A DNA stretch of 64,000 nt from Minisyncoccota bacterium (GTDB lineage Bacteria > Patescibacteriota > Minisyncoccia > Phycocordibacterales > UBA9973), in the NCBI GenBank assembly GCA_041666045.1, contig JBAYHR010000001.1, positions 21,107 to 85,106 of the forward strand. The letters are read 5' to 3'. Position numbers and translations under genes: made by a program. Each line of letters starts with the position of its first letter. The first letter of the stretch is position 1. The notes below the pieces were generated by a model that worked only from the letters and a program-made list of their open reading frames with translations, did no database searches and was not told where the DNA came from. Shown here in pieces: positions 2,007 through 49,684 of this stretch.

Positions 2007-3296
2007 ATGAAAGGAAATTTTCAAACAATAATTATAATTACATTTATAGCCTTAGCGGTTTTTGGTGTTTTGGTTTTTTCTGGAGCTATAAAAATTGGAA
2101 GTGATAATCAATCTGGAGCATTAGGCACTGTTACATTATGGGGGACTGTAAAAGTGGATGTAATTGCATCAGCGCTTGATGATTTTAATCGTGTCAATAA
2201 AACTTTTATTGTGAAGTATGTTCAAAAATATCCAGAAACTTTTGACCAAGATTTACTTGAAGCATTAGCCTCAGGTCAAGGTCCAGATATGTTTTTCTTA
2301 CCTGATAATTTAGTCTTTAATTATAAAAATAAAATTTATCCTATTCCTTATCAAAGTTTGCCTGTTGCAACATTTGAAAATAGTTTTGCTTCAGCTGGAG
2401 AAGTATTTTTGACTTCAAAAGGTGTTTTGGCTTTTCCTATAGCAATTGATCCTATGGTTATGTATTATAACAGAAGCATTCTTGATGCAAATTCTGTTGT
2501 TTATCCTCCAGTATATTGGGACGAATTTATTAATCTTGTTCCAATTTTAACTAAAAAAGATGAAAATAAAAAAATAATAAAAAGTGGAGTTGCAATGGGG
2601 CAATTTTCAAATATTGACCATTCTAAAGATATAATTTCTATTTTATTTATGCAGGCTGGAAATCCAATTATAACTGAAAAAAATGGATATTTTGTTTCTA
2701 CTTTAAATGAAACTGGGAAATATGACTTAGGTTCTATTTTAAAATTCTATACGGATTTTTCTAATCCTCTAAAAGATGTTTATTCTTGGAATAAAGCTAT
2801 GCCTAATTCCAGTGATGTTTTTAGCGCTGATAATTTGGCATTTTATTTTGGATATGCGAGTGAGCTTCAGACTTTAATTAACAAGAATCCGAATCTAAAC
2901 TTTTTACCTGCGCAAATGCCTCAAATTAAAAATGCCAGTTCTAAACTTACTTCTGCTCGTGTTACTGGAATTGCCATTTCTGCTTTTTCTAAAAATTTAA
3001 ATACCGCTTTTACTGCTGCTGGTCTTTTATCAAGTAGTGATTTTGCTTCTAAATTTGCAAATGCTTTGGGTGTTGCTCCTGCCAGACGTGATCTTTTAGC
3101 TATAAAACAAACAGATGCATATTTACCGACTTTTTATTCTTCAGCTTTATATTCAAGAAGTTGGCTTGATCCATCCTCAAATGATACAGATAATATTTTT
3201 CGTGGAATGGTGGAAGGTGTATTGTCAAATAATATGACAGTTGAAAACGCAGTTAGAGATGCCAGTGCCAAGCTTAGTCTTTTATTAGCCAGATAA
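2007..3296 (+). CDS. extracellular solute-binding protein (ABC-type, family 1-like) with N-terminal membrane anchor
   Basis: N-terminal hydrophobic helix. Size and motifs resemble sugar-type periplasmic binding proteins. No cognate permease is adjacent. Confidence 0.45.
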   Translation: MKGNFQTIIIITFIALAVFGVLVFSGAIKIGSDNQSGALGTVTLWGTVKVDVIASALDDFNRVNKTFIVKYVQKYPETFDQDLLEALASGQGPDMFFLPDNLVFNYKNKIYPIPYQSLPVATFENSFASAGEVFLTSKGVLAFPIAIDPMVMYYNRSILDANSVVYPPVYWDEFINLVPILTKKDENKKIIKSGVAMGQFSNIDHSKDIISILFMQAGNPIITEKNGYFVSTLNETGKYDLGSILKFYTDFSNPLKDVYSWNKAMPNSSDVFSADNLAFYFGYASELQTLINKNPNLNFLPAQMPQIKNASSKLTSARVTGIAISAFSKNLNTAFTAAGLLSSSDFASKFANALGVAPARRDLLAIKQTDAYLPTFYSSALYSRSWLDPSSNDTDNIFRGMVEGVLSNNMTVENAVRDASAKLSLLLAR

Positions 3297-3302
3297 TCAA
3301 TT

Positions 3303-4343
3303 ATGAAAAAAATAACAAAATTTTTAATTTTCTTTTCAATATTAAGTATTTTTCTTTTGCCTAGTATTTCTTTTGCTCAAACTACATCTACTCTCACCAC
3401 TTCAGATCTCACAGCAACTTCCGTTACATTAAATGCAACTGGGTTAACTCCTAATCAAATATATAAATTTAAAATTAATGGAGCTTCTGGTTTAATTGAA
3501 CAGCAATTTACAGCAGATTCTACTGGTACGGGTAAGGTTTCTTTTGGATCTCCGAATTTTCATTTAGAAGTATATAGTGATTTTATTGCTTCGGTAAATG
3601 AATATAATCCTAATACAGGGATTTCATCAAATGCTATTGCCACTTTAAATTTTAAAACATTAGGAGTAAATCTTATTGTATCAGATATTACAAAAAATTC
3701 TGTTACTTTAAACGCAACTGGGTTAACTCCTTCTAGATTACATAAATTTGAAATTGTTGGAGCTTCTGGTTCTCCTACGCAAGAAGTTACAGCGGATGTT
3801 GATAGTAAGGCTAAGGTTACTTTTAATAATTTAGTTTCAGGACATAGTTATGCTGCTAGAGTATATCTTGTAGGATCTGAGACAATTGCCAGAGGTTATT
3901 TTGAGGTTTATTTTACAACATTAGCTTCAGATATTACTCCAATCCCAAACTCGAACCCAAATCCAGATCCCAATCAAAATTCAAGTTCAGACATAACTCT
4001 ATCATCTGGAAATACAAGTTCTGGCGGTGGTAGCAATTTAATTCCTTGTGGGACAACAGCTAATCCTACAGCTTGTGGATTTAATGATTTAATGAAATTA
4101 ATAAATAATGTGGTTAATTTTATTCTTTTTGATATGGTTGTGCCTATTGCGGCTATAATGTTCGCTTATGCTGGTATTCTCCTTATATTTTCTGGTGGTG
4201 ATACTTCCAAGAGATCTAAAGCAAAAAGTATATTTATCAATGTTGCCATAGGATTTATTATTGCAATCGCAGCTTGGCTTATAGTTGAATTTATATTGAA
4301 TCTATTAGGCTATGATAAGACTTGGGATTGGTTTGGCTTTTAA
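3303..4343 (+). CDS. secreted protein with two ~110-aa tandem Ig/FN3-like repeats and a C-terminal pilin-like two-TM domain
   Basis: Signal peptide ending SFAQ. Internal duplication (SVTLNATGLTP...GASG occurs twice). C-terminal hydrophobic-charged-hydrophobic domain is shared with the four downstream small ORFs. Confidence 0.55.
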   Translation: MKKITKFLIFFSILSIFLLPSISFAQTTSTLTTSDLTATSVTLNATGLTPNQIYKFKINGASGLIEQQFTADSTGTGKVSFGSPNFHLEVYSDFIASVNEYNPNTGISSNAIATLNFKTLGVNLIVSDITKNSVTLNATGLTPSRLHKFEIVGASGSPTQEVTADVDSKAKVTFNNLVSGHSYAARVYLVGSETIARGYFEVYFTTLASDITPIPNSNPNPDPNQNSSSDITLSSGNTSSGGGSNLIPCGTTANPTACGFNDLMKLINNVVNFILFDMVVPIAAIMFAYAGILLIFSGGDTSKRSKAKSIFINVAIGFIIAIAAWLIVEFILNLLGYDKTWDWFGF

Positions 4344-4432
4344 AATAGTGTATAATTGATATACTTGTCCCGTTAGAAATTTAATAAGCGGGAGAATAAA
4401 ATAATATGAAAAAAATTAAAATTTCTAATGGG

Positions 4433-4843
4433 ATGAAATTCATTAAGAAAAATCTTTTTGCAATAATTTTATCAATCATTGTTATTTCTGTGCCAATTTT
4501 ATCTTTTGCGCAGAATGGTACAAATGCAATTGGAACAGGAAATGGCACAAATGCTACGGGAACAGGTGGTCTTTCCTCAACGATTGTTAACCCAATAGGA
4601 GTTACAAGCATAACTGGCTTAATTAAAACAATTCTACAAGCTGTCATAAAACTAGGAATACCAATTGTTGCGTTGGCAATAATTTATTGCGGTTTTCTTT
4701 TTGTGAAAGCCTTGGGAAAACCTGAGGAATTAAAAAAAGCAAAAGACGCTTTATTATACACAGTTATAGGCGCGGCAATTTTACTGGGTGCTTGGACGAT
4801 CGCCCAGCTTATATCAGATACAGTTTTAGAAATAGCTAAATAA
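4433..4843 (+). CDS. small secreted/membrane pilin-like protein, paralog 2 (T4SS-pilin/VirB2-TrbC-like architecture)
   Basis: Start chosen at the ATG directly after the conserved hairpin arm; the track ORF starts at 4406. Signal peptide ends SFAQ. C-terminal IPIVALAIIYCGFLFVKALGKPEELKKAKD...ILLGAWTI forms a two-TM hairpin. Confidence 0.5.
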   Translation: MKFIKKNLFAIILSIIVISVPILSFAQNGTNAIGTGNGTNATGTGGLSSTIVNPIGVTSITGLIKTILQAVIKLGIPIVALAIIYCGFLFVKALGKPEELKKAKDALLYTVIGAAILLGAWTIAQLISDTVLEIAK

Positions 4844-4848
4844 AATTT

Positions 4849-5253
4849 ATGAAGATAAATAAAATAAAATATTTTGCATTTGTTATAGTTATGTTTTCTT
4901 TTTTATATATGCCAAGTATTTCTTTGGCTCAACAACAACCTGAACAATCTAGTTCAAGGGGTGTTTTATGCAGTTTAGTTTCAAGTCCAAAATTGGGAGA
5001 TTTATTAGGTTATATTACTTGTATTATTAGCAAGTCTGTAATTCCTTTAATTTTTGCTTTAGCTATTGCTTCTTTTATTTGGGGAGTTGTGCAGTATGTA
5101 ATAAATAATGATGATGAAGCAAAAAAAGCAAAAGGCAAGATGTTTATGATCTGGGGAATTATAGCTTTGACAGTGATGGTTTCTGTTTGGGGATTGGTAA
5201 GTATTTTGGGAAATACTTTTGGAATTCTTAATGTAATACCGCAACTTAAATAG
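4849..5253 (+). CDS. small secreted/membrane pilin-like protein, paralog 3
   Basis: Signal peptide ends SLAQQ. C-terminal WGVVQYVINNDDEAKKAKGKMFMIWGIIALTVMVSVWGLV motif. Confidence 0.5.
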   Translation: MKINKIKYFAFVIVMFSFLYMPSISLAQQQPEQSSSRGVLCSLVSSPKLGDLLGYITCIISKSVIPLIFALAIASFIWGVVQYVINNDDEAKKAKGKMFMIWGIIALTVMVSVWGLVSILGNTFGILNVIPQLK

Positions 5254-5372
5254 TAATCCACATAGGTGTGATTTTGTCTTATCTTTATGGTATAATACAA
5301 AAAGCTTAATAAATTTAGGCAAATTATTATTAGTTTTAAGGTCGCTCAATTATTATTAATTATTAAAAAAAT

Positions 5373-5747
5373 ATGAAAAATAAATTAGCTATTTTATCTG
5401 GTTTTGGATTAGTTTTTGCTCCATTATTAGCTTTTGCTCAACAATCAAATGGTTGTGTCAATGCAATACCTGGAACAATACAAAAGGTAATCTGTACAAT
5501 AGGAAATATTTTAGATACTGTTATTCCAGTTCTTATTGTTTTAGGAATCGTATATTTTGTTTGGGGAGTTGTTCAGTATGTAATGGCTTCTGAAGAAGAG
5601 GCAAAGAAAGTAGGAAGAGAAAGAATGATATATGGTATTATTGGTTTAGTTGTTATTGTAGGTATGTGGGGTCTTGTTGGTATTGTTACTAATACTTTCA
5701 ATTTGTCTGGTACTACAACATATACTATTCCAACAAGTCCTTTCTAG
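5373..5747 (+). CDS. small secreted/membrane pilin-like protein, paralog 4
   Basis: Signal peptide ends AFAQQ. C-terminal WGVVQYVMASEEEAKKVGRERMIYGIIGLVVIVGMWGLV motif. Extended -10 TGGTATAAT upstream. Confidence 0.5.
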   Translation: MKNKLAILSGFGLVFAPLLAFAQQSNGCVNAIPGTIQKVICTIGNILDTVIPVLIVLGIVYFVWGVVQYVMASEEEAKKVGRERMIYGIIGLVVIVGMWGLVGIVTNTFNLSGTTTYTIPTSPF

Positions 5748-5753
5748 TAATAT

Positions 5754-6095
5754 ATGGATTTATTTTTTACAAATATTGCTTACGCGAGCGTAGATTCTGT
5801 TATATCAAAGATTAATACGCTTATAATAAATCCGCTCATTATTTTGCTTTTTGCTTTAGCATTAATGTATTTTCTTTATGGTGTATTTGAATTTCTTTCA
5901 AATGGAGATAATGAAGAAAAAAAGACAACTGGCAAGAAGCATATGATTTGGGGTATTGTTGGACTTACTGTTATGATGGGTGTTTGGTTTATTCTTGGAG
6001 TGATTTTAGATACTTTCAATATAACCGGAATAAATCCTCAGGAGGGAACTGTTCAATTAGATGAATATAATCCTTCATATCCGCAAGTAAAATAA
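5754..6095 (+). CDS. small membrane pilin-like protein, paralog 5
   Basis: Same C-terminal motif: NGDNEEKKTTGKKHMIWGIVGLTVMMGVWFILGV. Confidence 0.45.
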   Translation: MDLFFTNIAYASVDSVISKINTLIINPLIILLFALALMYFLYGVFEFLSNGDNEEKKTTGKKHMIWGIVGLTVMMGVWFILGVILDTFNITGINPQEGTVQLDEYNPSYPQVK

Positions 6096-6101
6096 TAAAA
6101 A

Positions 6102-6148
6102 ATGAAATAGGAATTAAAAAAAGCGATTCGTTAAAAACGAATCGCTTT
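6102..6148. terminator. bidirectional intrinsic terminator between convergent genes
   Basis: aaaaagcgattcgttaaaaacgaatcgctttttgtttt: perfect GC-containing hairpin with T-runs on both sides. Confidence 0.6.
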
Positions 6149-6169
6149 TTGTTTTACCACTTTAGGTAA

Positions 6170-6637
6170 TTAATAAATTTGATACCAATAGAAAATAATT
6201 TTATCTATACCTTCCGGATAAATTAGATAATTTCCTGCTGGCATTAGTGCCCAATCTTTTATTTTTGAGTTGTGTTCAGGTTTTTCGTTACAAATGAAAA
6301 ACCTAGATGGATCCGATTCTAATACATATTTTCCGTTACCTGGACCAATAATTCGTGTATTAGTTTTAGTAGGATCAAGATAAGCTCTTACTGGTTTATC
6401 CATTGTCGCTACCTCTTTTCCGCTCATTGGGTAAGCTACGAATAAATTTGAGAATGAAGTGTTTTCAGTTTTATTTGAGTTCTTGTTTGTTTGTTTTATT
6501 AGACTAAATATATCATTGCGATATATTAACAATAAAACAAGTGCAACAATTAAAACTACCCAAATTAGTAATTTACTAAATTTCAAGCCAAATAACAATA
6601 TAAAAGGCATACCTAAAATTTTTAATAACTTAATCAT
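6170..6637 (-). CDS. membrane protein, possible NfeD-like partner of the upstream SPFH protein
   Basis: N-terminal TM then soluble C-terminal domain. Strong SD aaggagga precedes the ATG. Translationally coupled to the SPFH gene. Confidence 0.3.
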   Translation of the reverse strand: MIKLLKILGMPFILLFGLKFSKLLIWVVLIVALVLLLIYRNDIFSLIKQTNKNSNKTENTSFSNLFVAYPMSGKEVATMDKPVRAYLDPTKTNTRIIGPGNGKYVLESDPSRFFICNEKPEHNSKIKDWALMPAGNYLIYPEGIDKIIFYWYQIY

Positions 6638-6653: not shown

Positions 6654-7688
6654 TTATTTAGTTTGTGCGTTTACCATTGGTACTACAGGTGAAGCTCCAG
6701 TTCCATAAGAAAGAAGATGGGTTTTAGATACCTGTTCAAGATTTGCAAAACTAGAGATATTTTCAACTCCAATTATTTTTGAAATCTCTTCAAGATATTT
6801 CTTTATGCCTTCTCCTTCAGCTTGTTTTGCTAGAGCCATCTTTTGGGCGAAAAGAATTTTAGCATTTCCATCAAGTTCAGCTATTTTTTGAGCCATTTGA
6901 GCTTTTTGAAAATCTTCATCACCTTCTTCCCCTTTACTTAAGTCATAAAATTTCATTTCTATTAAATCTGCTCTTAAATGAAATTTATTTTCAATAATCT
7001 TATTTGTTTCTTCAATTACATTTTTAACAAAAGGAGAATCTGGGTCGGATTTGTTAGTTGTATTGCGAAAATCACTATAAGAAAGAAGTTTACATTGTTC
7101 TTGAATTGCTCCAGCAAAACCAGTTTCAGCTTGTGCAAGGATAATACCATCAGGTTTTATTTTAAAAATTACCTGAATAATGTTTAAAACTTCAAAAGTT
7201 ACTAGAAAGACTAAGTCAATTTTGGATCCGTCGTTTAATTCTACTCTAAGGATTTCAATTGCATGAGTATAAACTCTTTTAAAATAATCAAGTTTTTCAT
7301 TTTTTTTAATTATTTCATAACTAATTTGTTCTCCTTTTACTCCCTTAGCTTTTTTTTCTGTATACTCATTCCATTCTGAAGAAAATTGGTAAATATTTTT
7401 AATTGGTGTTATACCAAAAAAAATAATTCCAAATTCTTTAAATAAAGATCCATTTTTTTTAGGATTAATTGCTTTTACAAGTTCACCATTATTGTTGTAG
7501 TAAAGTCCTTTCATATTAGATAAAACTTCAACAACATTTTCTTCTTTCATTACGAGTTTTCCTTGTTCATTTCCAAGACGGGTGAAATGTGTGTTCCTTT
7601 TTGCTAGATTTTTCATCCCGATAATAATACAAGCTGAAAGTAGTGATATTAAAATTACACTACCTAAAATGATTAAAAAAATTGTCAT
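6654..7688 (-). CDS. SPFH/band-7 (flotillin/stomatin-like) membrane protein
   Basis: N-terminal TM. Core resembles the SPFH fold. C-terminal alanine/glutamate-rich coiled region AQMAQKIAELDGNAKILFAQKMALAKQAEGEG. Confidence 0.45.
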   Translation of the reverse strand: MTIFLIILGSVILISLLSACIIIGMKNLAKRNTHFTRLGNEQGKLVMKEENVVEVLSNMKGLYYNNNGELVKAINPKKNGSLFKEFGIIFFGITPIKNIYQFSSEWNEYTEKKAKGVKGEQISYEIIKKNEKLDYFKRVYTHAIEILRVELNDGSKIDLVFLVTFEVLNIIQVIFKIKPDGIILAQAETGFAGAIQEQCKLLSYSDFRNTTNKSDPDSPFVKNVIEETNKIIENKFHLRADLIEMKFYDLSKGEEGDEDFQKAQMAQKIAELDGNAKILFAQKMALAKQAEGEGIKKYLEEISKIIGVENISSFANLEQVSKTHLLSYGTGASPVVPMVNAQTK

Positions 7689-7928: not shown

Positions 7929-8738
7929 TTAATTTCTGTGTCCATAGTAACTGTTGTTACCATTTCCACTAGAATGGTTATTGCTGTATCCATTACCATG
8001 ATTATGGCTACAATTTCCACCATAATGGTTTGAATAAGAACTTGCCCCGAATGGAGCTGTTACAACTTTTTGAATACTATAACCACCATATCGTTGATAG
8101 TTGTTGCGATAATAAATTGGTGGATCTGGTATAAAAACTGCACCAGTTCTAACTGTAACTTGTTTTCCGTAAACAATGTTTTCTTGTTGGTAGTTTTGAT
8201 TGTTAATAGAATTATTTTCATTAACGTAAACTTTCCCAACATTGTCATTGTTTACATTTGCATTAGTTTCTTGTTTGGGTATTTTTATTTTTTCAACTCT
8301 TGTTACGGGTACTGCGAGAATATTTCCGCATTTACTTCTTATTATAATAATTGAAAATGTTCCAATTCTGAAGACCCATGCAAACTCACTACCAGTAGGA
8401 TTTTTATGCCCGATGCTTTGGACAATTTTTTTAGTTTTAGGATCCCATCCAGAATTCATATAACCACCTTCTTCTAAATAAACTTCTTCAAGATAAAGAT
8501 GATTAAAGATTTCATTTATTCTAGTATTAGAAACTTTAAATATTGTATCTTTTAATCCAGCATTTATGTTTTCAATAAGAGAATTTCTGAATGCGAAACC
8601 TTTTGCAGTTTCTTGGAAAGCTAATTCTTTTAATTCTTCTTTTGAAGGAGAATTATATTTTGGAAAAATAGCTTGTACTTGTCCAAAAGAGCTGAGCTCG
8701 ATCCCAAAAAGGAGAGCAAAAATAATTAAATTTTTCAT
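7929..8738 (-). CDS. secreted protein with G/N/Y/H/S-rich C-terminal tail
   Basis: Signal peptide MKNLIIFALLFGIELSSFGQVQA. C-terminal low-complexity HNHGNGYSNNHSSGNGNNSYYGHRN. Confidence 0.4.
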   Translation of the reverse strand: MKNLIIFALLFGIELSSFGQVQAIFPKYNSPSKEELKELAFQETAKGFAFRNSLIENINAGLKDTIFKVSNTRINEIFNHLYLEEVYLEEGGYMNSGWDPKTKKIVQSIGHKNPTGSEFAWVFRIGTFSIIIIRSKCGNILAVPVTRVEKIKIPKQETNANVNNDNVGKVYVNENNSINNQNYQQENIVYGKQVTVRTGAVFIPDPPIYYRNNYQRYGGYSIQKVVTAPFGASSYSNHYGGNCSHNHGNGYSNNHSSGNGNNSYYGHRN

Positions 8739-8911: not shown

Positions 8912-9661
8912 TTATTCGTGTTTTAATGGTGTTTCTTTATATTTTTCATCTTTTTTGTAAGCTTTCCTGAATAATATAACTCCTAAGAAAACTAAGACTA
9001 AAAGCATAAGCCATTGAATGAAACTTTTTGGCATAAATCCATTGTCACCGAATATTGCATTAGCTGCGAGATTACTATTGTTCTTTTCTCTGTCGTTAAA
9101 GGTTATAGAATTTGAAGTACCTCCACCTGGAGCAGGGTTAAATACGGTTATGGTAATTGGCTTACCACTGGATAAATCTTCTTTTGTTAAATCCATTGTA
9201 AGGATAGTAGACTTAAAACGATTAACTCCATTTATCTTTTCGTAGACATAATTAGTAGTTCTATTTTCACCATTTACTCTGCCTATTGATCCAACTATGA
9301 ACTTTGATCCAGTGACAGTGATAGTTATTACTTCAGTATTTGCGGGTGCTTTGGAAGGGGATATTTGAGAAATAGTAGGTACAGGATTAAGGTATGTTTG
9401 AGTATTTGTGTTTGTATTGTTTGTATTATTGTTTGTATTATTGTTTGTATTATTGTTTGTATTATTATTGTTCGTATTGTTTGTATTATTATTGTTTGTA
9501 TTTGGAGAAATATGATTATAATCATTTGGATCAAAAGTACTTCCTGAATTAACTGTAACAGTACAATTAGTACAAGCAAAAGCTGGTAATGCAAAAGAAA
9601 ACCCAAAAATAAAGACTAAAATTGCGGGAAGGGATATTAAGTTTTTATTTATTTTATTCAT
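8912..9661 (-). CDS. surface-anchored secreted protein with Asn/Thr-rich tandem repeat and C-terminal TM anchor
   Basis: Real start is the MNKINKNL methionine at 9661. The track ORF extends to 9775 only by running through tRNA-Leu. Signal peptide present. NNTNNN repeat is encoded by a 12-nt tandem DNA repeat. C-terminal hydrophobic anchor followed by KKDEKYKE. Confidence 0.5.
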   Translation of the reverse strand: MNKINKNLISLPAILVFIFGFSFALPAFACTNCTVTVNSGSTFDPNDYNHISPNTNNNNTNNTNNNNTNNNTNNNTNNNTNNTNTNTQTYLNPVPTISQISPSKAPANTEVITITVTGSKFIVGSIGRVNGENRTTNYVYEKINGVNRFKSTILTMDLTKEDLSSGKPITITVFNPAPGGGTSNSITFNDREKNNSNLAANAIFGDNGFMPKSFIQWLMLLVLVFLGVILFRKAYKKDEKYKETPLKHE

Positions 9662-9667
9662 ACTGGT

Positions 9668-9696
9668 ATGATAGCATGTTTGAAAATAAATGTCAA
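9668..9696 (-). promoter_or_regulatory. strong promoter TTGACA-N17-TGCTATCAT, leaderless or near-leaderless
   Basis: Minus-strand sequence ACACTTGACATTTATTTTCAAACATGCTATCATACCAGTA followed directly by ATG. Member of a three-copy module; see 17498-17526 and 18296-18325. Confidence 0.55.
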
Positions 9697-9699
9697 GTG

Positions 9700-9781
9700 T
9701 GCTGGAGGAGGGACTCGAACCCTCAAGCCTTGCGGCACTAGTTCCTAAGACTAGCGCGTATACCAATTCCGCCACTCCAGC
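9700..9781 (-). tRNA. tRNA-Leu (anticodon TAG)
   Basis: Manual cloverleaf: acceptor GCTGGAG/CTCCAGC, anticodon stem CTAGT/ACTAG, loop CTTAGGA, long variable arm, T-loop TTCGAGT. Confidence 0.85.
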
Positions 9782-9832
9782 ATATTAAAATATTTAAGTT
9801 AAAAAATTTAAATAATAAAATTTTTTAACTTG

Positions 9833-9906
9833 TGCGCCCTGAAGGGATCGAACCTTCGACCTTATCCTTAAGAGGGATCTGCTCTACCAGCTGAGCTAAG
9901 GGCGCA
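9833..9906 (-). tRNA. tRNA-Lys (anticodon CTT)
   Basis: Acceptor GCGCCCT/AGGGCGC, D-arm GCTC-AGCTGGTA-GAGC, anticodon loop CTCTTAA, T-loop TTCGATC. Confidence 0.85.
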
Positions 9907-9924
9907 TAATATTATTTAATTTTG

Positions 9925-10006
9925 TGCCCGGAGTGGGAATCGAACCCACATCCCTTGCGAGACACGATTTTAAGTCGTGCGCGTATACCAGTTCCGCCAT
10001 CCGGGC
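9925..10006 (-). tRNA. tRNA-Leu (anticodon TAA)
   Basis: Acceptor GCCCGGA/TCCGGGC, anticodon stem CACGA/TCGTG, loop CTTAAAA, long variable arm, T-loop TTCGATT. Confidence 0.85.
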
Positions 10007-10047
10007 ATTGCAGAAGATTTATGTATTATAACAAAAAATCTTCTTTG

Positions 10048-10119
10048 AGGCCTGGGCCGGAATTGAACCGGCGTATATTCCTTTTGCAGAGGAATGCCTT
10101 ACCACTTGGCTACCAGGCC
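10048..10119 (-). tRNA. tRNA-Cys (anticodon GCA)
   Basis: Acceptor GGCCTGG/CCAGGCC with discriminator U, anticodon stem TTCCT/AGGAA, loop CTGCAAA, T-loop TTCAATT. Confidence 0.8.
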
Positions 10120-36870: not shown

Positions 36871-37485
36871 ATGAGTGATGAAGAAATAAAAAAATCTGAA
36901 AATATAGAAGAAATTCCTGTTTCTCCTGAAGAAGTTGATTCTGAGGTTGTAGAATTTGAATTTAATGATGATGGGGAAGAGGATTTAAAGAAGACCCTAA
37001 AGAAACTTAGAGCTGATTTAAAAGTTTGTAGAAAAGAAAAGGAAGAGTATTTAACTGGTTGGCAGAAAGAGCGAGCAGAATTTGCTAATTATAAAAAACA
37101 AGAAGAAGACAGAAAAGCAAACTTTTCGGAAGGCTTGCGAGAAAGAATACTTTCAAGATTTCTTACTGTTATAGATAGTTTCAATATGGCTTTTGCAAAT
37201 AAAGAAGGCTGGGAAAAAGTTGATGAAAATTGGCGTAAGGGTGTGGAATATATTTATACGCAGATGAATAATATTTTTGAAGAATATGGAGTAAAACCAG
37301 TAGGAGAAATAGGGGAATCTTTTGATCCAAGCATGCATGAATCAATAGAAATGGTACCAACTGATAAAAAACAAGATGATCATAAAGTTTCTCAAGTGGT
37401 TCAAAAAGGTTACAAATTAGGCGATCGCATTATTCGTCCAGCTAGGGTGAATATATTTGAATATAATGAATCAGCAGGAAAGTAG
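36871..37485 (+). CDS. grpE: nucleotide exchange factor GrpE
   Basis: Coiled-coil N-terminus. C-terminal GESFDPSMHESIEMVP...GDRIIRPARV. Confidence 0.8.
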   Translation: MSDEEIKKSENIEEIPVSPEEVDSEVVEFEFNDDGEEDLKKTLKKLRADLKVCRKEKEEYLTGWQKERAEFANYKKQEEDRKANFSEGLRERILSRFLTVIDSFNMAFANKEGWEKVDENWRKGVEYIYTQMNNIFEEYGVKPVGEIGESFDPSMHESIEMVPTDKKQDDHKVSQVVQKGYKLGDRIIRPARVNIFEYNESAGK

Positions 37486-39124
37486 AAATTGTGAACACTG
37501 TAATCAAAAATTCTCAATATCTGAGGGTGAATTATCTTTATATAAAAAAGTTGGTATTGAACTGCCAACAATATGTTTCTTTTGTAGAGTAAAACAACAT
37601 TTATCTTTTTGGATGTTTGGAAAATTTAGAAAAGGGAAGTCGGATCTTTCGGGAGAAAGTTTGATTACAGTTTTACCAGAGAAAAATAGATATCCTATTT
37701 ACACATTGCATGAATGGCACAGTGACGCGTGGGACGCTATGGATTATGGTCAAGATTATGATTCATCAAAATCATTTTTTACTCAATTACAAGAACTTCA
37801 AGAAAAAGTTCCTCATTCTCATCAAAATGGTGCTAAAAATACAAATTGTGATTGGTGCGATGATGTATGGAATTCAAAGAATTGTTATTTATCACGTTCT
37901 ATGGAAACGTGTGAAGATTTATATTATTCATACAGAAATTTATGGGTGAAAAATTCAATTGATGTATCAGTTTGTTTTTATTCAGAGAAATGTTTTGATT
38001 GCGTAAATTGTTATAATTCTTACAAATTATTTTATTCTAGGAATTCCAAAGATTGCATTGATTCATATTTTTTACAGGATTGCAGAAATTGTCAGAATTG
38101 TTTTATGTGTTGGAATCTCAGGGGTAAATCATATTGTATAGAAAATATTCAATACACCAGGGAAGAATATTTAGAAAAATTAAAAACTTTTAAGCTTCAT
38201 TCGTATAATTCAATTCAGAAATATAAAAGACAGTTAGACAAAATAGCTCAAAACGAAGTAGTTCACAGAGAAAATTTTAATCTCAAAACTTATAATTCTG
38301 ATGGAGACAATTTAACTAACACAAAAGACTGCTACAATTGCTTTACAATTAATGATTCTGAAGATAGCTATAATTGTATTAGGGGAATGAAACAAAAATC
38401 AGATATTGATACTAATGGTTGTTGGTATTCTGAATTATTAGGCAATTGCAGTTGTTGTCTAAACAGTTATGCAGAAAAATATAGCGTGTGGTCTTCGTCT
38501 AGATATTCTGAGTATTTAGATTTATGCATAGAATGTGAATATTGTTTTGGTTGCGTAGGTTTAAAAAAGAAAAAATATTGTATTTTAAATAAACAATATG
38601 AGAAAGTTGAATATGAAAAACTTCGTGAACAAATTATTTCAGATATGAAAAAGCAAGGTGAATATGGCAAGTTTTTGCCTTATTCTATGTCCGCCGGACC
38701 ATTCAATTTTTCTACTAGTTTTTTGTATTTTCCAGATGTTAAAAAAGAAGATATTTTGAAACTTGGTGGTTATTGGGAAGATATCAACGAAAGCCACATA
38801 GATGGAATGCCCACAAGTGAATTACCTGATTCTATAAATGACGTATCCGATGATATTTGCTCTAAGGCTCTTATTTGTCCTGCCACTGGTTGGCGTTTTA
38901 ATATCGCTCAAAATGAGCTTTCTTTTTATAGAGAAAACAATATTCCATTACCGAGATATCATTTTGATGTACGAATAAAAGATAATATGAAATATACAAC
39001 TGTTTTACAAGCTTATCCTTATAAATGTTTTTATTGTAAAAAAGATATAAATGCATATTATCCACCAGAATGGGAATATAAAAAAATAGCTTGCGAAGAA
39101 TGTTATAAACAAAATATAAGTTAA
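37457..39124 (+). CDS. large cysteine-rich protein, paralog A (zinc-ribbon-like termini, internal duplication)
   Basis: 555 aa with dense CxxC / CxNCxNCFxC motifs. Two internal copies of C..CFGCV.L....YCI.NKQY.KEEY. N- and C-terminal E.EL.FY.....LP..C..C modules. Confidence 0.5.
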   Translation: MNIMNQQESRNCEHCNQKFSISEGELSLYKKVGIELPTICFFCRVKQHLSFWMFGKFRKGKSDLSGESLITVLPEKNRYPIYTLHEWHSDAWDAMDYGQDYDSSKSFFTQLQELQEKVPHSHQNGAKNTNCDWCDDVWNSKNCYLSRSMETCEDLYYSYRNLWVKNSIDVSVCFYSEKCFDCVNCYNSYKLFYSRNSKDCIDSYFLQDCRNCQNCFMCWNLRGKSYCIENIQYTREEYLEKLKTFKLHSYNSIQKYKRQLDKIAQNEVVHRENFNLKTYNSDGDNLTNTKDCYNCFTINDSEDSYNCIRGMKQKSDIDTNGCWYSELLGNCSCCLNSYAEKYSVWSSSRYSEYLDLCIECEYCFGCVGLKKKKYCILNKQYEKVEYEKLREQIISDMKKQGEYGKFLPYSMSAGPFNFSTSFLYFPDVKKEDILKLGGYWEDINESHIDGMPTSELPDSINDVSDDICSKALICPATGWRFNIAQNELSFYRENNIPLPRYHFDVRIKDNMKYTTVLQAYPYKCFYCKKDINAYYPPEWEYKKIACEECYKQNIS

Positions 39125-39165: not shown

Positions 39166-40950
39166 ATGAGCAAAAACAATGAAAAAAGAATATGCCAAAA
39201 CTGTAAAAAAGATTTTGTTATAGAACAAGAAGATTTTAACTTTTATGAAAAAATAAAAGTCCCAGCACCAACTTGGTGCCCAGAGTGTAGGTTAATAAGA
39301 AGATTAGCTTATCGTGAATCTAGACCTTTGTATAAAGATATTTGTGATAAATGTGGGGAGGAAATTATAAGTATTTTTGCAGAAAATTCTGAAATTATAG
39401 TTTATTGTAGTTCCTGTTGGTGGGGAGATAGCTGGGATGCAATGGATTATGGAAAAGATTATGATTTTTCTAGACCTTTCTTTGAACAATTTTATGAATT
39501 ACAAAAATTAGTACCTCGTGAAGCTACTGGTCAAAAAAATTCTGAAAATTGTCAATATTCCAATGGTGATGTTCGTTGTAAAAACTGTACTTTAACTTTT
39601 GATTGTCTTGAGGCTATTAATTGTTATAATTCTCAAATTGCCATATTTTCTAAAGATTCAATAGATTCAGATAGCGTTATGAATGCTGATCATACTTATG
39701 ATAATTTGTGTTCAAATGGTATTTATAATACAAAATTTATTTATTATTCTGATGAATGTCTTGATTGCTCTTTTCTTTTTTATTGCTTAGGGTGTACAAA
39801 TTGTTTTGGTTGTGTAAATTTAAGAAATCAAAAATATTGTATTTGGAATAAACAATACACAAAAGAAGAATATAAAAAAGAAATTGAGAAATGGGATTTG
39901 GGTAGTTATAAAACTATACAAAAAGCAAAGGAAAAATTTATGGAACTTTATTATAAAATTCCAAGGCGTTTTGCTTTTATAACAAATTCCATTAATGTTA
40001 CTGGAGAAGATATTATAAATAGTAAAAATTGCAAAAATTGTTTTTTTACTAGGCATGGAGTAGAAAATTGTAAATATATTTTTTCATGTGGTTTGCTCTT
40101 AAAAGATAGTTATGACGCTACTTTTGGAGGAGATAAATCAGAAATATTTTATGAAACAAATGGCGGAATGCAATCCCAAAGATGTTTTTTTAGTCGTGCA
40201 CCTAATGGTTCTAAGGACATAGAATATTCCGATAGAGTTTTTAACTGTTCTAATTTATTTGGTTGCGTAAATTTGAGAAATAAAAGTCATTGTATTTTTA
40301 ATAAGCAATATACTAAAGAAAAATATTTTGAAATGGTAGAAAAAATAAAAAGGCAAATGAATGAAATGCCATACATTGATAGAATGGGCAGAATTTATAA
40401 ATATGGAGAATTTTTTCCTAGTGAGTTGTCCCTATGGGCATATAATAAAAGCTGGGGACATGAATTTTTTCCATTAAACAAAGAAGATATTTTAAAAAGA
40501 GGATTTAATTGGCAGGACGACCCCAAAAGAGATTATGAAATAACTATTAAATCAAAAGATTTACCTGATCATATTAATGATGTTTCAGATGATATTTTAG
40601 ATGAAGTAATAGAATGTGAACATAATGGAAAAGATTGTAATCAGCAATGCACTACAGCTTTTAGGATTTTACCGAATGAATTGCAATTTTACAGGCAGAT
40701 GAATTTAGCTTTACCAAGGTTATGTCCAAATTGTCGCCACTATGAACGAATTAAAAAAACAAACCCACCAAAACTTTGGCATAGAAAGTGTATGTGTAAT
40801 GGCGTAGAATCAAGCAATAAGGAATATAAAAATACTATTAAACATTTTCATGGAGATAAACCATGTTCCAATGAATTTGAAACTGCTATAAGTGATGAAA
40901 GAAAAGAGATAGTGTATTGTAAAGAATGTTATCAAGCTGAATTTATATGA
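39166..40950 (+). CDS. large cysteine-rich protein, paralog B
   Basis: 594 aa. Same architecture as 37457-39124: CTNCFGCVNLRNQKYCIWNKQYTKEEY and CSNLFGCVNLRNKSHCIFNKQYTKEKY. Confidence 0.5.
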   Translation: MSKNNEKRICQNCKKDFVIEQEDFNFYEKIKVPAPTWCPECRLIRRLAYRESRPLYKDICDKCGEEIISIFAENSEIIVYCSSCWWGDSWDAMDYGKDYDFSRPFFEQFYELQKLVPREATGQKNSENCQYSNGDVRCKNCTLTFDCLEAINCYNSQIAIFSKDSIDSDSVMNADHTYDNLCSNGIYNTKFIYYSDECLDCSFLFYCLGCTNCFGCVNLRNQKYCIWNKQYTKEEYKKEIEKWDLGSYKTIQKAKEKFMELYYKIPRRFAFITNSINVTGEDIINSKNCKNCFFTRHGVENCKYIFSCGLLLKDSYDATFGGDKSEIFYETNGGMQSQRCFFSRAPNGSKDIEYSDRVFNCSNLFGCVNLRNKSHCIFNKQYTKEKYFEMVEKIKRQMNEMPYIDRMGRIYKYGEFFPSELSLWAYNKSWGHEFFPLNKEDILKRGFNWQDDPKRDYEITIKSKDLPDHINDVSDDILDEVIECEHNGKDCNQQCTTAFRILPNELQFYRQMNLALPRLCPNCRHYERIKKTNPPKLWHRKCMCNGVESSNKEYKNTIKHFHGDKPCSNEFETAISDERKEIVYCKECYQAEFI

Positions 40951-45725: not shown

Positions 45726-47846
45726 ATGGAATTGTCAGAAATACCTAAAAATAAAGATCTCACATACCTTGGGCTTACCACATTTCGTGATAAAAATAGA
45801 CTTTTTGGCATAAAGCGCAAAGATAGACGTCAGCATGTTTATGTTCTTGGAAAATCAGGTACAGGTAAATCTGTGCTTATGTTTAATATGGTTATTCAGA
45901 ATGTTGTAAATGGCGATGGTGTTTGTGTTGTAGATCCTCACGGTGAACTTGTGGAAGCAGTATTGTCTGCTATTCCACCACATAGATTAAAAGATGTTGT
46001 TTATTTTAATCCTGCTGATACAGATTACCACATTGGTTTTAATGTTTTAGAACTTGCTGATCCTAAATATAAACATTTAGTTGCATCAGGTCTCATGGGA
46101 ATTTTCACAAAGATTTGGGCAAATGCTTGGTCTGCTCGTATGGAATATATTTTAAACAATGCAATTTTAGCCTTACTTGATACTCCCGGGACGACACTTC
46201 TTGGTATCCCTAGAATGTTAGTGGACAAAGATTACAGACAGAAAATTATTTCAAATTTGAAAGATCCTGTTATTAAAGCTTTTTGGGTTCACGAATATGA
46301 AGCTTGGCAAGATAAATTCAGAAATGAAGCTATCGCGCCTATTCAGAATAAAGTTGGACAATTTCTTTCCAGTTCAATAATTCGTAATGTTGTTGGTCAA
46401 TCTATAAGTACAATAAATATTTTTGACATAATGAATGAGGGAAAGATTTTCCTTGTGAATGTTTCAAAGGGACGTATTGGTGAAGACAATTCTGCATTAT
46501 TAGGAGGAATGTTAATTACGAAAATTCAGCTTGCCGCTATGGAGCGCGTGCGTATTCCAGAAGATGACAGAAAAGATTTTTATTTATATGTTGACGAATT
46601 TCAAAACTTTGTTACTGATTCTTTTGCAAGTATTTTGTCAGAAGCTAGAAAATACAGATTGAATCTTACTGTTGCCCATCAATACACCGCTCAGCTTGTT
46701 TCAGACAAAAGTTCCAGCGTGCGTGATGCGGTTTTTGGAAACGTTGGAACAATGATAATTTTTCGTTGTGGCGCCGATGATGCTGATTTTTTAGAAAAAG
46801 AATTTGATCCTGAATTTACTCCGCAAGATATTGTAAATTTGCCAAACTATAAAGTTTATTTAAAACTTATGATAGATGGTGTAACATCAAGGCCATTTTC
46901 CGCAAAAACTTTGCCTCCGATGGTGAAGTCGGGAAATAAAGAAATAGAAAATGAAGTTATTAGATCTTCTCGGGCTCTTTATTGCAAATCAAAAGAAGTT
47001 GTTGAAAGAGAAATCAATAATTGGTCTGGAATGTCCATTGGAAATGAAAACGAGACAGGTAATATGGAGAAATTTAGCGCCAAATGTTCAATTTGTTTTA
47101 GTGATACTTTTGTTCCATTTAAACCAGAACCAGGAAGGCCAGTTTATTGTAGAGATTGTATAGCTAAAATGAAATCAGGGGAATTGAAACCGTTAAAAGG
47201 TTCAATGAAACAAATTTCTTATGATGAAACTAAATTTTTCAAACCTTTGGCTGATTTGGGTATAGAATTTCAACAAAAGGATACTTTAAGCAGTAAGCCC
47301 GAAGAAGAAAGATATTCTGAAAGAGTTAATAAACAAATTGCACATAATCAGGTTAATAAAAGTGGAAATAATAAACCAGGGATTTTTTCAGCAATTAAAA
47401 AGGTATTTACACCGCCTTTTGCAAGAGACAGGTTTAATAAAAATATTCCACCAAAACATATTCGTTCTGGCGAGGAAAATTTAGCATTAAGAGATATTTT
47501 AAACAAAACTCTTTCAGAAAATAAAGTTTTTGAAAATAAAAAAGAAGAGGTTAAGGAGATTGAAGAAGTAAAAAAAGAAACACCAGCACCGATTTCTTTA
47601 AATGAATTGGGAAATTCAAAACCTGCAACTCAATCAAAATTGAAAGATAGATCTGCAAGTAATGAAAAAATGAATAATTTAAAAAATTTAATTTCAGAAA
47701 AAACAAAAGAACAAGAAAAGCAAAAAGAAGAAAAAGTTGAAATAAAAAAAGAGCCAGAAATTAAAAAAGAGGAAAAGCCCACTATTCCACAAAAAGAGAA
47801 AGTGAAAGAAGTACCAGAAGACGTTTTAAGAAAAATTTTAGAATAA
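45726..47846 (+). CDS. FtsK/HerA-superfamily P-loop ATPase (DUF87 / VirD4-TraG-like) with zinc ribbon and K/E-rich tail
   Basis: Walker A VLGKSGTGKS, Walker [12 protein letters not shown], sensor [14 protein letters not shown]. CxxC...CxxC ribbon (CSICF...CRDC). Long lysine/glutamate-rich C-terminus. Confidence 0.6.
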   Translation: MELSEIPKNKDLTYLGLTTFRDKNRLFGIKRKDRRQHVYVLGKSGTGKSVLMFNMVIQNVVNGDGVCVVDPHGELVEAVLSAIPPHRLKDVVYFNPADTDYHIGFNVLELADPKYKHLVASGLMGIFTKIWANAWSARMEYILNNAILALLDTPGTTLLGIPRMLVDKDYRQKIISNLKDPVIKAFWVHEYEAWQDKFRNEAIAPIQNKVGQFLSSSIIRNVVGQSISTINIFDIMNEGKIFLVNVSKGRIGEDNSALLGGMLITKIQLAAMERVRIPEDDRKDFYLYVDEFQNFVTDSFASILSEARKYRLNLTVAHQYTAQLVSDKSSSVRDAVFGNVGTMIIFRCGADDADFLEKEFDPEFTPQDIVNLPNYKVYLKLMIDGVTSRPFSAKTLPPMVKSGNKEIENEVIRSSRALYCKSKEVVEREINNWSGMSIGNENETGNMEKFSAKCSICFSDTFVPFKPEPGRPVYCRDCIAKMKSGELKPLKGSMKQISYDETKFFKPLADLGIEFQQKDTLSSKPEEERYSERVNKQIAHNQVNKSGNNKPGIFSAIKKVFTPPFARDRFNKNIPPKHIRSGEENLALRDILNKTLSENKVFENKKEEVKEIEEVKKETPAPISLNELGNSKPATQSKLKDRSASNEKMNNLKNLISEKTKEQEKQKEEKVEIKKEPEIKKEEKPTIPQKEKVKEVPEDVLRKILE

Positions 47847-48154: not shown

Positions 48155-49684
48155 ATGGCAAAGACGAATCGGGTTCAGATAATCAAATATGCTCCGCCTC
48201 CACCAGAATTACCTGTTTTTGGAAAGGTAAAACCAGAAGAGGTTTCTTTTATTGGGCGTACGAATTATGTCGCTGCTCTTGAAGAAAAGAAGTTTATTTT
48301 CGGTATAAAGCGTGTTGACCGCCGAAGGCACCTTTATATTATTGGAAAGTCTGGCGTTGGTAAGACCAAGCTTCTTGAGCTTATGATTAGACAAGATGTT
48401 ACATATGGCCATGGTATGTGTTTAATTGACCCACATGGTGATGTTATTGATGCAATGCTGGATTATATACCTAAAGAGCGTATTGAAGATGTTTGCATTA
48501 TAGATCCTTCAGATGTTGATTTCCCAGCTTCTTTCAACCCTTTGGCAAATGTTGATCCAATGTTTAAATTTCAATTGACTCAAGGTTTGATTGAAGTTCT
48601 ACAAAAACAATTCGGGGCAAATTGGACTCCAAGACTTGAGCACGTTTTTCGTTTTACATGTTTAGCCTTACTTGATTATCCTCATGCGACAATGCGCGGA
48701 ATGATATCAATGCTTACAGATAGAAATTATAGACAGAAAGTTGTTGAATATATTACAGATGATATGGTTAAAAGATTCTTCGCAATCGAATTCGCGGATT
48801 GGTCTGAAAAATTTGATACAGACGCCATTATTCCGCTTGTAAATAAACTCGGACAATTTTTGTCTGATCCTTTGCTTCGTAATATTTTCGGACAAAAACA
48901 AAATAAAATAGATATTAGCAAATTGATGAATGAGCAGAAAATAATTTTTATTAATTTATCTAAGGGACGTATCGGTGAGGAAAATTCGTCTTTCTTTGGT
49001 TCAATGTTTTTAACAAAAATAAAACAAGCTGGAATGGAACGTGCTGCTATTCCTGAAAATGAGCGCAATGATTTTTATCTGTATGTAGACGAGTTCCAAA
49101 ATATAGTTACTCAAACATTTGAAAATATTTTGTCAGAAGCTAGAAAATATGGTTTGAATTTAACTGTTGCTCATCAATACGTAGGACAGATTTTACCAAA
49201 AGTTCATCAAGCTGTGTTAGGAAACGTGGGTAGTGTTATTACTTTCCGTGTTGGAGGAGAAGATGCTGTAAAATTAAAACCAGAATTTGCTCCAATATTC
49301 GAAGTTAAAGATATGATCAACTTAGCTGTTGGTGAAATTTATGTCAAGATGACAATTGATGGAGAATCTTACGATCCATTTTCTGCTGAAACTTTAAGAG
49401 TTTTACCGCCAACGCATCCATCATATAAAAAAGAAATTATTGAAGCTTCTCGTAAAAAATATTCAATTTCAAAAGATGACGCACAAAAGCTTATTTCAGA
49501 AGAAGAAGCAACGATTATAAGAAGTGCTGAAGAAAAAGCAATTATAGAAGGAAAAGCAAAAAGGAAAGCGAAAGAAAATAAGAAAGAAATAGAAGAAACA
49601 GATGAAGAAGAAGAAATAGAAGAAGAGAAAGAAAAAATAGTACAAAAAATAAAAAAAGATGGCGAATCTGAGCCAATGATTTAA
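48155..49684 (+). CDS. FtsK/HerA-superfamily P-loop ATPase, paralog of 45726-47846
   Basis: [38 protein letters not shown]-rich tail. About 40% identical to the upstream paralog by eye. Confidence 0.6.

Follow-up and report, generated by a model that had tools for sequence, protein, structure and literature searches.

What is built from five adjacent genes that each encode an exported protein with the same C-terminal pair of hydrophobic helices, and do the differences between them serve to vary the cell surface? The question is raised by positions 3303-6095 of a 64,000-nt stretch of contig JBAYHR010000001.1 (assembly GCA_041666045.1), the whole of which is called the window below. NCBI lists the source as Candidatus Paceibacterota (Patescibacteria, the candidate phyla radiation, CPR), relatives carry the labels Nomurabacteria or Minisyncoccia, and the exact window proteins are present in JGI metagenome 3300037810. 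An initial annotation had described five consecutive paralogues with a shared two-helix module, had assigned them to the pilins of type IV secretion systems (T4SSs) and had proposed that the locus may vary the surface structure shown. We found open reading frames (ORFs) at exactly these coordinates, all on the forward strand and all with the shared C-terminal two-helix module. The family call was confirmed, and the proposed variation was not. We consider it probable that the locus is a chromosomal pilin cassette of a Patescibacteria-type T4SS in a Candidatus Paceibacterota or Nomurabacteria-like bacterium, and that its five paralogues within the VirB2/TrbC superfamily are ancient and cannot replace one another.

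All five genes belong to the Pfam family T4SS_pilin (PF18895). In gene order the proteins scored 41.9, 38.3, 34.3, 33.4 and 36.8 bits (E 1e-10 to 5e-8), each above the gathering score of 26.6 bits, and the precomputed annotation of the same contig agrees with this assignment. When the six-frame translation of the window was searched with a hidden Markov model of the five modules, no sixth copy was found. Hydropathy analysis placed in each protein two C-terminal hydrophobic helices that flank a short acidic-then-basic, Lys-rich loop, and the common layout is leader, exposed N-terminus, helix, Lys-rich loop, helix. The family is large: the module profile retrieved 18,475 cluster representatives (E≤1e-3) among 1.84 billion proteins. 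Two members already have matching names at NCBI, member 4 being listed as 'pilin' and member 1 as 'fibronectin type III domain-containing protein'. The initial annotation had named holin-like proteins as the contrary identification; pilin profiles matched, and no holin or other family did.

Members 1 to 4 carry classical Sec-type signal peptides with the ends SFA↓Q, SFA↓Q, SLA↓Q and AFA↓Q (the arrow marks the predicted cut), as the initial annotation had described for all five. The description fails for member 5, whose 11-residue leader ends in AYA↓S. The consensus quoted there for the module (WGVVQYV...VWGLV) likewise applies to members 3-5, which are mutually 32-40% identical in this region, and not to members 1 and 2, which are 14-23% identical to the rest. 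Profile comparison unites the group of members 1-2 with that of members 3-5 (probability 99%, E 7e-18). Type IV pilus (T4P) pilins were considered and rejected. These are recognized by a class III leader, G↓F/M-x-x-x-E, cut by prepilin peptidase and by a single N-terminal hydrophobic helix; the five proteins have A-x-A↓Q or A-x-A↓S leaders, two C-terminal helices and no match to a T4P family.

We then compared the array across genomes in two sets, one consisting of the window and six loci found through homologues of member 1 (seven genomes), the other of 80 loci from GTDB at one genome per species, typed as the best 80 of 172 species with a relative of member 4. In an all-versus-all comparison of the 36 pilin modules of the seven genomes, the best matches of all 36 were the genes at the same position elsewhere (73-179 bits, versus 33-100 bits for the best paralogue in the own genome). 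Because every pilin best matches its positional counterpart, the five genes are, judged by their sequences, five old orthologous groups, called types A to E here in gene order. The order A-B-C-D-E was constant across the 80 species genomes, with 5 to 6 genes per locus. The window's own form, A-B-C-D-E, was present in 25 of the 80 loci; 32 had A-B-DC-D-E, 13 had A-B-D-DC-D-E, and 10 were minor variants or truncated by contig ends. 'DC' denotes one gene in which two pilin modules, a D-like one and C, are fused (one example carries the D-like module twice ahead of C), and such a fused gene occupies the third position in 50 of 80 loci. All seven genomes share the neighbourhood gyrA, methyltransferase, solute-binding protein (SBP), pilins, convergent unknown genes, rbfA, infB, and the SBP gene lies directly upstream of type A in 77 of 77 loci that contain type A. 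Since the order is fixed in 80 species and orthology follows position in the seven genomes, the comparison favours a fixed heteromeric set over a cassette that serves variation.

Fusion of modules is not confined to the DC gene. In other proteins pilin modules are joined head to tail in threes, sixes and even fifteen at a time (1,775 aa). Such 'polypilins', of which we found no mention in the papers cited here, would be topologically possible because each module is predicted to be N-out/C-out.

The first gene differs from the others in its ectodomain (Table 1). Pfam fn3 matched type A with 33.1 bits (E 6.5e-8), the two FN3 halves align with each other at 57% identity over 51 aa (E 1e-17), and a direct DNA repeat of 144 nt with a spacing of 279 nt underlies the pair. 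The two tandem Ig/FN3-like repeats of the initial annotation are thus real; the repeat unit measures 93 aa, not ~110 aa. An AlphaFold model of type A (mean predicted local distance difference test score, pLDDT, 83.8) has strands within residues 30-205 and helices at 260-296 and 301-334. The strands form two beta-sandwiches with pLDDT >90, for which Foldseek returned tandem FN3 structures (E 4e-9). Cys249 and Cys258, which immediately precede the module, do not vary among 51 homologues. The idea that the first member is an adhesin fits this model, in which two FN3 domains would lie outside the membrane on a flexible linker.

The ectodomain is not a constant part of type A. In the larger set the shortest type A protein has 122 aa and the longest 743 aa; 52 of the 77 fall below 200 aa and lack an ectodomain. 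Between the seven genomes the type A module is 44-78% identical, and the ectodomain could not be aligned in 14 of the 21 genome pairs. The domains found at the same N-terminal place in homologues include fn3, DUF5018, Flg_new_2, Big_3_5 (Ig-like) and Cys-rich ones. At the level of sequence, then, what varies is the first gene's ectodomain, from species to species, and not the array within a genome.

The remaining types also have features of their own. Type B, the member closest to canonical TrbC/VirB2, has a signal peptide followed by an exposed Gly/Thr/Asn-rich N-terminus; translation may in fact begin at Met10 (nt 4433), where the orthologues start. Type C carries a Cys41/Cys58 pair ahead of the hairpin, and its orthologues are 43-82% identical. 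Type D, with a Cys28/Cys41 pair, is the most conserved member: it retrieved 493 cluster representatives at E≤1e-3, and the best 120 of the 493 are 53-81% identical to it. In its predicted structure (mean pLDDT 68) two helices, 36-71 and 75-108, form a hairpin. In type E the leader MDLFFTNIAYA↓SVDS replaces a full signal peptide, and the frame is closed directly upstream by TAG TAA. The short leader is kept in 6 of 7 orthologues, and 11 aa is also the commonest length in the larger set (78 species).

Between types C and D lies a spacer of 119 nt, which contains an extended -10 promoter-like element (Table 1). The spacer itself is kept in all seven genomes (119-193 nt), and a TGnTATAAT-like motif is found at the same position within it in seven of seven aligned genomes, four times exactly and three times with one mismatch or shifted. 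We infer from this conservation that the element is a candidate internal promoter for types D and E; in a scan with consensus promoters and terminators, sites were no more frequent than in shuffled sequence.

Tandem VirB2-like pilin loci are an already published, known type in this phylum. In Saccharibacteria an array of four to six small VirB2-related proteins with signal peptides was described in 2018 (bioRxiv 10.1101/258137). Wang et al. (2023) reported a series of predicted pilins inside the T4SS cluster of Southlakia epibionticum and showed that epibiotic growth requires them (PMC10633639); this T4SS, including the pilin array, is the only one so far shown to be essential to its own bacterium (PMC10633639). 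Among 3,035 Patescibacteria genomes, Quinonero-Coronel et al. (2025) detected with PF18895 and PF04956 a total of 441 arrays, each with 2-11 pilin genes, in 383 assemblies; identity within arrays averaged 25% and reached at most 54% (PMC12102498). Their definition of an array is two or more genes matching PF18895 or PF04956 in tandem, or with one non-pilin gene between them (PMC12102498), and the window, with five adjacent PF18895 matches in a Patescibacteria genome, falls within it.

The array of the window shares with these arrays the Pfam family (TrbC being the second match), the phylum, the tandem layout and the Sec-type leaders, and the identity within the array is 14-40% compared with their mean of 25%. 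It differs in three respects. The Southlakia-type array lies inside a T4SS cluster, whereas that of the window lies between the SBP gene and convergent unknown genes, with 58 kb or more to the nearest possible gene of the machine on one side. The FN3 domains on the first member set it apart from the published arrays. A fixed order of orthologous types is not reported in PMC12102498, PMC10633639 or bioRxiv 10.1101/258137, where variation was speculated on instead. The new points are modest: the fixed five-type cassette, the modular type A ectodomain, the fused two-module gene in relatives and the short type E leader. Several tandem virB2-type genes are also present in Bartonella (Trw) and Anaplasma phagocytophilum, which are host-dependent bacteria as well. 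Those arrays have been described as amplified recently, with a presumed role in surface variation (as cited in PMC12102498), whereas the paralogues of the window are old, 14-40% identical, and each forms its own orthologous group.

The initial annotation had also pointed to TrbC, and here the outcome was mixed. The gathering score of Pfam TrbC/VirB2 (PF04956) is 27.9 bits; member 1 reached 24.7 bits, member 2 25.6 bits (E 1.5e-5) and member 4 15.0 bits, so that members 1 and 2 match with E about 1e-5 but stay below the cut-off. The name of the T4SS_pilin family and these sub-threshold matches connect the five proteins to TrbC/VirB2. Three of six positional orthologues of member 2 exceed it (31.7, 32.3 and 28.0 bits; the others scored 27.4, 26.5 and 25.1), and in these three the match spans nearly the whole model. 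Like the proteins of the window, VirB2/TrbC (Agrobacterium T-pilin, IncP TrbC) have a long leader ending in A-x-A↓Q, two hydrophobic helices with a short charged loop, a predicted N-out/C-out topology and ~70-100 residues after the predicted cleavage. We examined nine authentic plasmid-encoded VirB2/TrbC proteins of alphaproteobacterial origin, and the leaders of all nine end in A-x-A↓Q, as in members 1-4. Head-to-tail cyclisation of the Agrobacterium T-pilin involves the mature N-terminal Gln. Given the common motif, cyclisation of Patescibacteria pilins may be worth considering as a candidate modification. Unlike canonical VirB2, the array has five different genes instead of one, a monoderm host and no adjacent virB1, virB3 or virB4, and type A carries a 220-residue ectodomain; we know of no canonical VirB2 with such an ectodomain. 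The kinship to canonical VirB2 is distant. It is supported by the Pfam models, by the common architecture and by the genomic context that others have described, and for Agrobacterium VirB2 we claim no direct homology other than what Pfam indicates.

The best NCBIfam match of all five proteins was the pilin-like conjugal transfer protein Mbov_0395 (NF045849), a family from Mycoplasma integrative and conjugative elements (ICEs), with 23.7-35.5 bits over nearly the full 80-residue model. All these scores, including the highest (35.5 bits, member 4), lie below the cut-off of 40, and the window proteins are not members of that family. Mbov_0395 belongs to a monoderm T4SS, as is probable here too; unlike the window array, it is a single gene inside the conjugation module of an ICE.

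A tblastn search of 72,556 plasmids with member 2 gave six weak matches (E 0.2-0.9), all haloarchaeal and four of them on genes annotated 'pilin'; we treat them as a lead, not as evidence. One match (8932-9267 of Natronorubrum aibiense plasmid NZ_CP045489.1) is followed, 4 kb downstream, by genes for a 1,100-aa 'conjugal transfer protein' and a protein with a TraM-recognition domain (coupling protein). These haloarchaeal plasmid 'pilin' genes may be relatives that serve archaeal conjugation-type systems.

How could such a set work? Each pilin would be exported through Sec and cut by signal peptidase I after A-x-A, and four mature pilins would begin with Gln, like Agrobacterium VirB2. In the membrane they would form N-out/C-out hairpins with the basic loop in the cytoplasm, as the positive-inside rule and the analogy to VirB2 suggest. 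A machine with a VirB4-type ATPase, encoded elsewhere, would pull the subunits from the membrane, and where the bacterium meets its host cell these would be assembled into a channel or a filament resembling a pilus. Since the orthologous set is fixed, the five types would have distinct structural roles. Our guess is that B and/or D are the bulk subunits, B being the most TrbC-like member and D the most conserved one, behind a conserved promoter-like element, and that A is a minor, adhesin-bearing subunit. Both termini face outward in solved conjugative pili, as in the F-pilus structure, and the FN3 pair of type A would therefore be displayed on the surface, carried by the 40-residue disordered linker and possibly conferring host specificity. 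That the cassette forms a pilus at all is what we infer from these features.

Several results weigh against this explanation. In hhalign the type B profile and the nine VirB2/TrbC proteins gave a probability of only 0.5% (E 0.12), with the helices in register; the type D profile aligned with the nine at the leader cleavage motif alone. Both profiles are shallow (effective number of sequences, Neff, 2-3), which makes this negative a weak one. Sequence profile searches of the PDB with the type D and type B alignments found no pilin, only chance matches to helices of G protein-coupled receptors. Foldseek returned nothing significant for the type D model, although a helical hairpin with a pLDDT of 68 is a poor query. 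Pfam and NCBIfam scans detected no virB4, virB6 or virB3 homologue from -6.7 kb to +73 kb, a span that comprised 48 ORFs (most window ORFs of at least 110 aa), 6.7 kb before and 9 kb after the window, and thus ~80 kb of the 265.6-kb contig. As no machine gene was present in the searched span, the link to a T4SS in this genome is an assumption based on what is seen across the phylum; in ~40% of the assemblies that have both, the pilin genes are not near virB4 (PMC12102498). Finally, a T4SS pilus has yet to be observed on a Patescibacterium, and T4SSs of the Gram-positive type are normally devoid of one (PMC12102498, PMC10633639). In a 2025 review the pilus that these monoderms might make is speculated on and described as an open and exciting question (PMC12857230).

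The only relatives of T4SS machine genes in the window encode two paralogous VirD4/TraD-like ATPases (Table 1). They are 44% identical, soluble and without a membrane helix, and the first has a CxxC-x17-CxxC zinc-finger domain. Patescibacteria genomes have roughly two homologues of type IV coupling proteins (T4CPs), usually far from virB4, which may have other functions (PMC12102498), and the window pair fits this pattern.

With these points in mind, the proteins might be parts of a T4SS without an extended pilus, namely hairpin subunits of a membrane channel or assembly platform, with type A as a membrane-anchored adhesin. The Patescibacteria machinery is of the Gram-positive MPF-FATA type, which is normally pilus-free (PMC12102498), and a channel would suit the Mbov_0395 match of member 4, a weak match to the pLS20 conjugation transmembrane protein and the lack of structural matches to solved pilus subunits. 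It would also accommodate polypeptides of 2-15 modules, which are hard to fit into a simple helical homopolymer unless they are processed. However, five to seven distinct subunits across many species exceed what known channels use, the VirB2-like A-x-A↓Q leader end together with exposed variable N-termini is the pattern of pilins, and orthologues reach the Pfam cut-off for TrbC/VirB2. Specialist reviewers of the essential Southlakia array likewise favour a pilus (PMC12857230). We therefore regard a channel without a pilus as a serious but rather doubtful explanation. A repertoire for antigenic or host-range variation, or a store of alternative major pilins used one at a time, seems improbable to us. 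Array members are no more than 14-40% identical, PMC12102498 likens such arrays to the VirB2 paralogues of Bartonella and Anaplasma, and the number of genes differs between species (5 to 6); all this would suit such a role, which is close to the surface variation proposed by the initial annotation. But the one-to-one positional orthologues score 2-4 times above any paralogue of the own genome, the order is fixed and the modules are conserved, not diversifying. A scan of the array region for signals of variation detected no invertible segments or inversion sites, no silent cassettes and no long near-identical repeats, the longest DNA similarity between array genes being 93 nt at 62-74%, and the genes are packed as one operon-like unit with gaps of 5-119 nt.

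The hairpin might instead be a mere membrane anchor for surface proteins that act outside type IV secretion, with the SBP, in nutrient capture or envelope organisation. The array always lies directly downstream of the membrane-anchored SBP in the same orientation, no T4SS ATPase is found near it in this genome, and an ectodomain is all but missing from every small member and from half of the type A orthologues, so that an adhesin role is not general. Yet synteny extends over the whole neighbourhood, gyrA through infB, in all these genomes, which leaves adjacency to the SBP with little weight, and the matches to PF18895 and TrbC are specific, with no competing family. Moreover, Saccharibacteria VirB2-like arrays recognized by the same Pfam models lie inside the T4SS cluster and are essential with it (PMC10633639, PMC12102498). 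The weak haloarchaeal plasmid relatives adjoin conjugation ATPase genes, a lead that also points away from an anchor. Taken together, we give an anchor outside type IV secretion very little probability. Holin-like or bacteriocin-like membrane peptides share with the five proteins the small size and the pair of transmembrane helices; no family of holins, bacteriocins or immunity proteins appeared among the Pfam and NCBIfam matches even at E≤1, and there is no phage or lysis context but a housekeeping neighbourhood conserved in 80 species. By the family scans and this context such a reading is effectively refuted.

A bolder proposal may be put forward tentatively, and we regard it as rather doubtful. 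The cassette could build a heteropolymeric T4SS pilus on a monoderm, ultrasmall epibiont, with a fixed role for each of the five types. In type A the site between the leader and the conserved disulphide loop would be permissive, and adhesin domains gained, exchanged or lost there in different lineages (FN3, DUF5018, Ig-like, Cys-rich repeats) would make it a modular determinant of host specificity carried on the filament. Such a heteropolymer would unite pilin and adhesin functions that are kept separate in known T4SSs (VirB2 versus VirB5, PrgB and TraN), and the type A ectodomain would be a marker of host range readable from sequence for uncultured Patescibacteria.

Much of the bacterial diversity that has not been cultured consists of Patescibacteria, whose way of life is attachment to host cells, and what their pilins build is an open question (PMC12857230). 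Our results do not describe a new kind of system; they sharpen that question for the Paceibacteria or Nomurabacteria lineage. In this lineage a stable five-type array is embedded in a housekeeping operon, apart from machine genes, and the only fast-changing part, the type A ectodomain, is the place to look for signals of host specificity.

The coordinates of the array, its domains and other features of the window are collected in Table 1. The window has a G+C content of ~30% and contains the housekeeping genes gyrA, infB, clpB, dnaK/dnaJ/grpE, rpoA and alaS and genes for ribosomal proteins. The gaps A-B, B-C, C-D and D-E measure 62, 5, 119 and 6 nt. Upstream of type A are gyrA, the methyltransferase gene and the SBP gene, with successive gaps of 22, 13 and 6 nt, the last being that between the SBP stop and type A. 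Because these gaps are only 6-22 nt, the run from gyrA to the pilins looks like one transcription unit; the SBP gene is probably co-transcribed with type A, and gyrA, methyltransferase, SBP and pilin array are probably expressed together constitutively. No ABC permease or ATPase gene lies alongside the SBP gene.

Table 1. Features of the window and their positions (+, forward strand; -, reverse strand; the arrow marks a predicted leader cleavage site)
Feature	Position (nt)	Strand	Remarks
Five pilin genes	3303-6095	+	co-directional ORFs, head to tail
Member 1, type A	3303-4343	+	346 aa
Type A signal peptide	3303-3380	+	aa 1-26; cut predicted at SFA↓Q
Type A FN3 domain 1	3381-3656	+	aa 27-118
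Type A FN3 domain 2	3657-3926	+	aa 119-208
Type A Pro/Ser/Asn-rich disordered linker	3927-4046	+	aa 209-248
Type A Cys249...Cys258 loop and two-helix pilin module	4047-4340	+	aa 249-346
Member 2, type B	4406-4843	+	145 aa
Member 3, type C	4849-5253	+	134 aa
Extended -10 promoter-like element TGGTATAAT	5288-5296	+	in the 119-nt C-D spacer
Member 4, type D	5373-5747	+	124 aa
Member 5, type E	5754-6095	+	113 aa
Membrane-anchored SBP	2007-3296	+	429 aa; SBP_bac_8 and SBP_bac_1 matches; one N-terminal hydrophobic helix
Hairpin GCGATTCGTT / AACGAATCGC, then T-run	6105-6163		28-nt arms, 79% complementary, 3-nt loop
Convergent gene 1	6170-6637	-	small membrane protein
Convergent gene 2	6654-7688	-	344 aa, one N-terminal helix
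Convergent gene 3	7929-8738	-	secreted, 269 aa, Asn/Gly/Tyr-rich
ORF for surface protein	8912-9775	-	overlaps tRNA-Leu (9699-9781)
tRNA cluster	9699-10119		Leu, Lys, Leu, Cys
ORF for protein with N-terminal membrane helices	22440-23768	+	442 aa
CxxC-rich paralogue 1	37457-39124	+	555 aa
CxxC-rich paralogue 2	39166-40950	+	594 aa
VirD4/TraD-like ATPase 1	45726-47846	+	between dnaK and dnaJ, 40 kb from the array
VirD4/TraD-like ATPase 2	48155-49684	+	between dnaK and dnaJ, 40 kb from the array

Between the array and the convergent genes lies a hairpin followed by a T-run, which is likely a bidirectional terminator closing the operon. The three convergent genes directly downstream of the array have no family match. 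Similar-sized counterparts, also without a family, were found at the same place in 4 of the 6 other loci of the smaller set (one of them partial) and in lower number in the other two, and BLAST detected the trio in only a minority of the 80 typed loci.

Elsewhere in the window, the 442-aa protein with N-terminal membrane helices is assigned to PF26449 (DUF8128) in the precomputed annotation and had no match in the Pfam and NCBIfam scans. Two adjacent CxxC-rich paralogues (34% identical, E 2e-78), likewise without a Pfam or NCBIfam match, lie between grpE and an ATP-binding cassette (ABC) transporter gene. The ORF that overlaps tRNA-Leu has an internal MNKINKN, which is probably its real start. 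The encoded surface protein combines a long Asn/Thr repeat with a membrane helix at the C-terminus, and a cluster of four tRNA genes lies beyond it.

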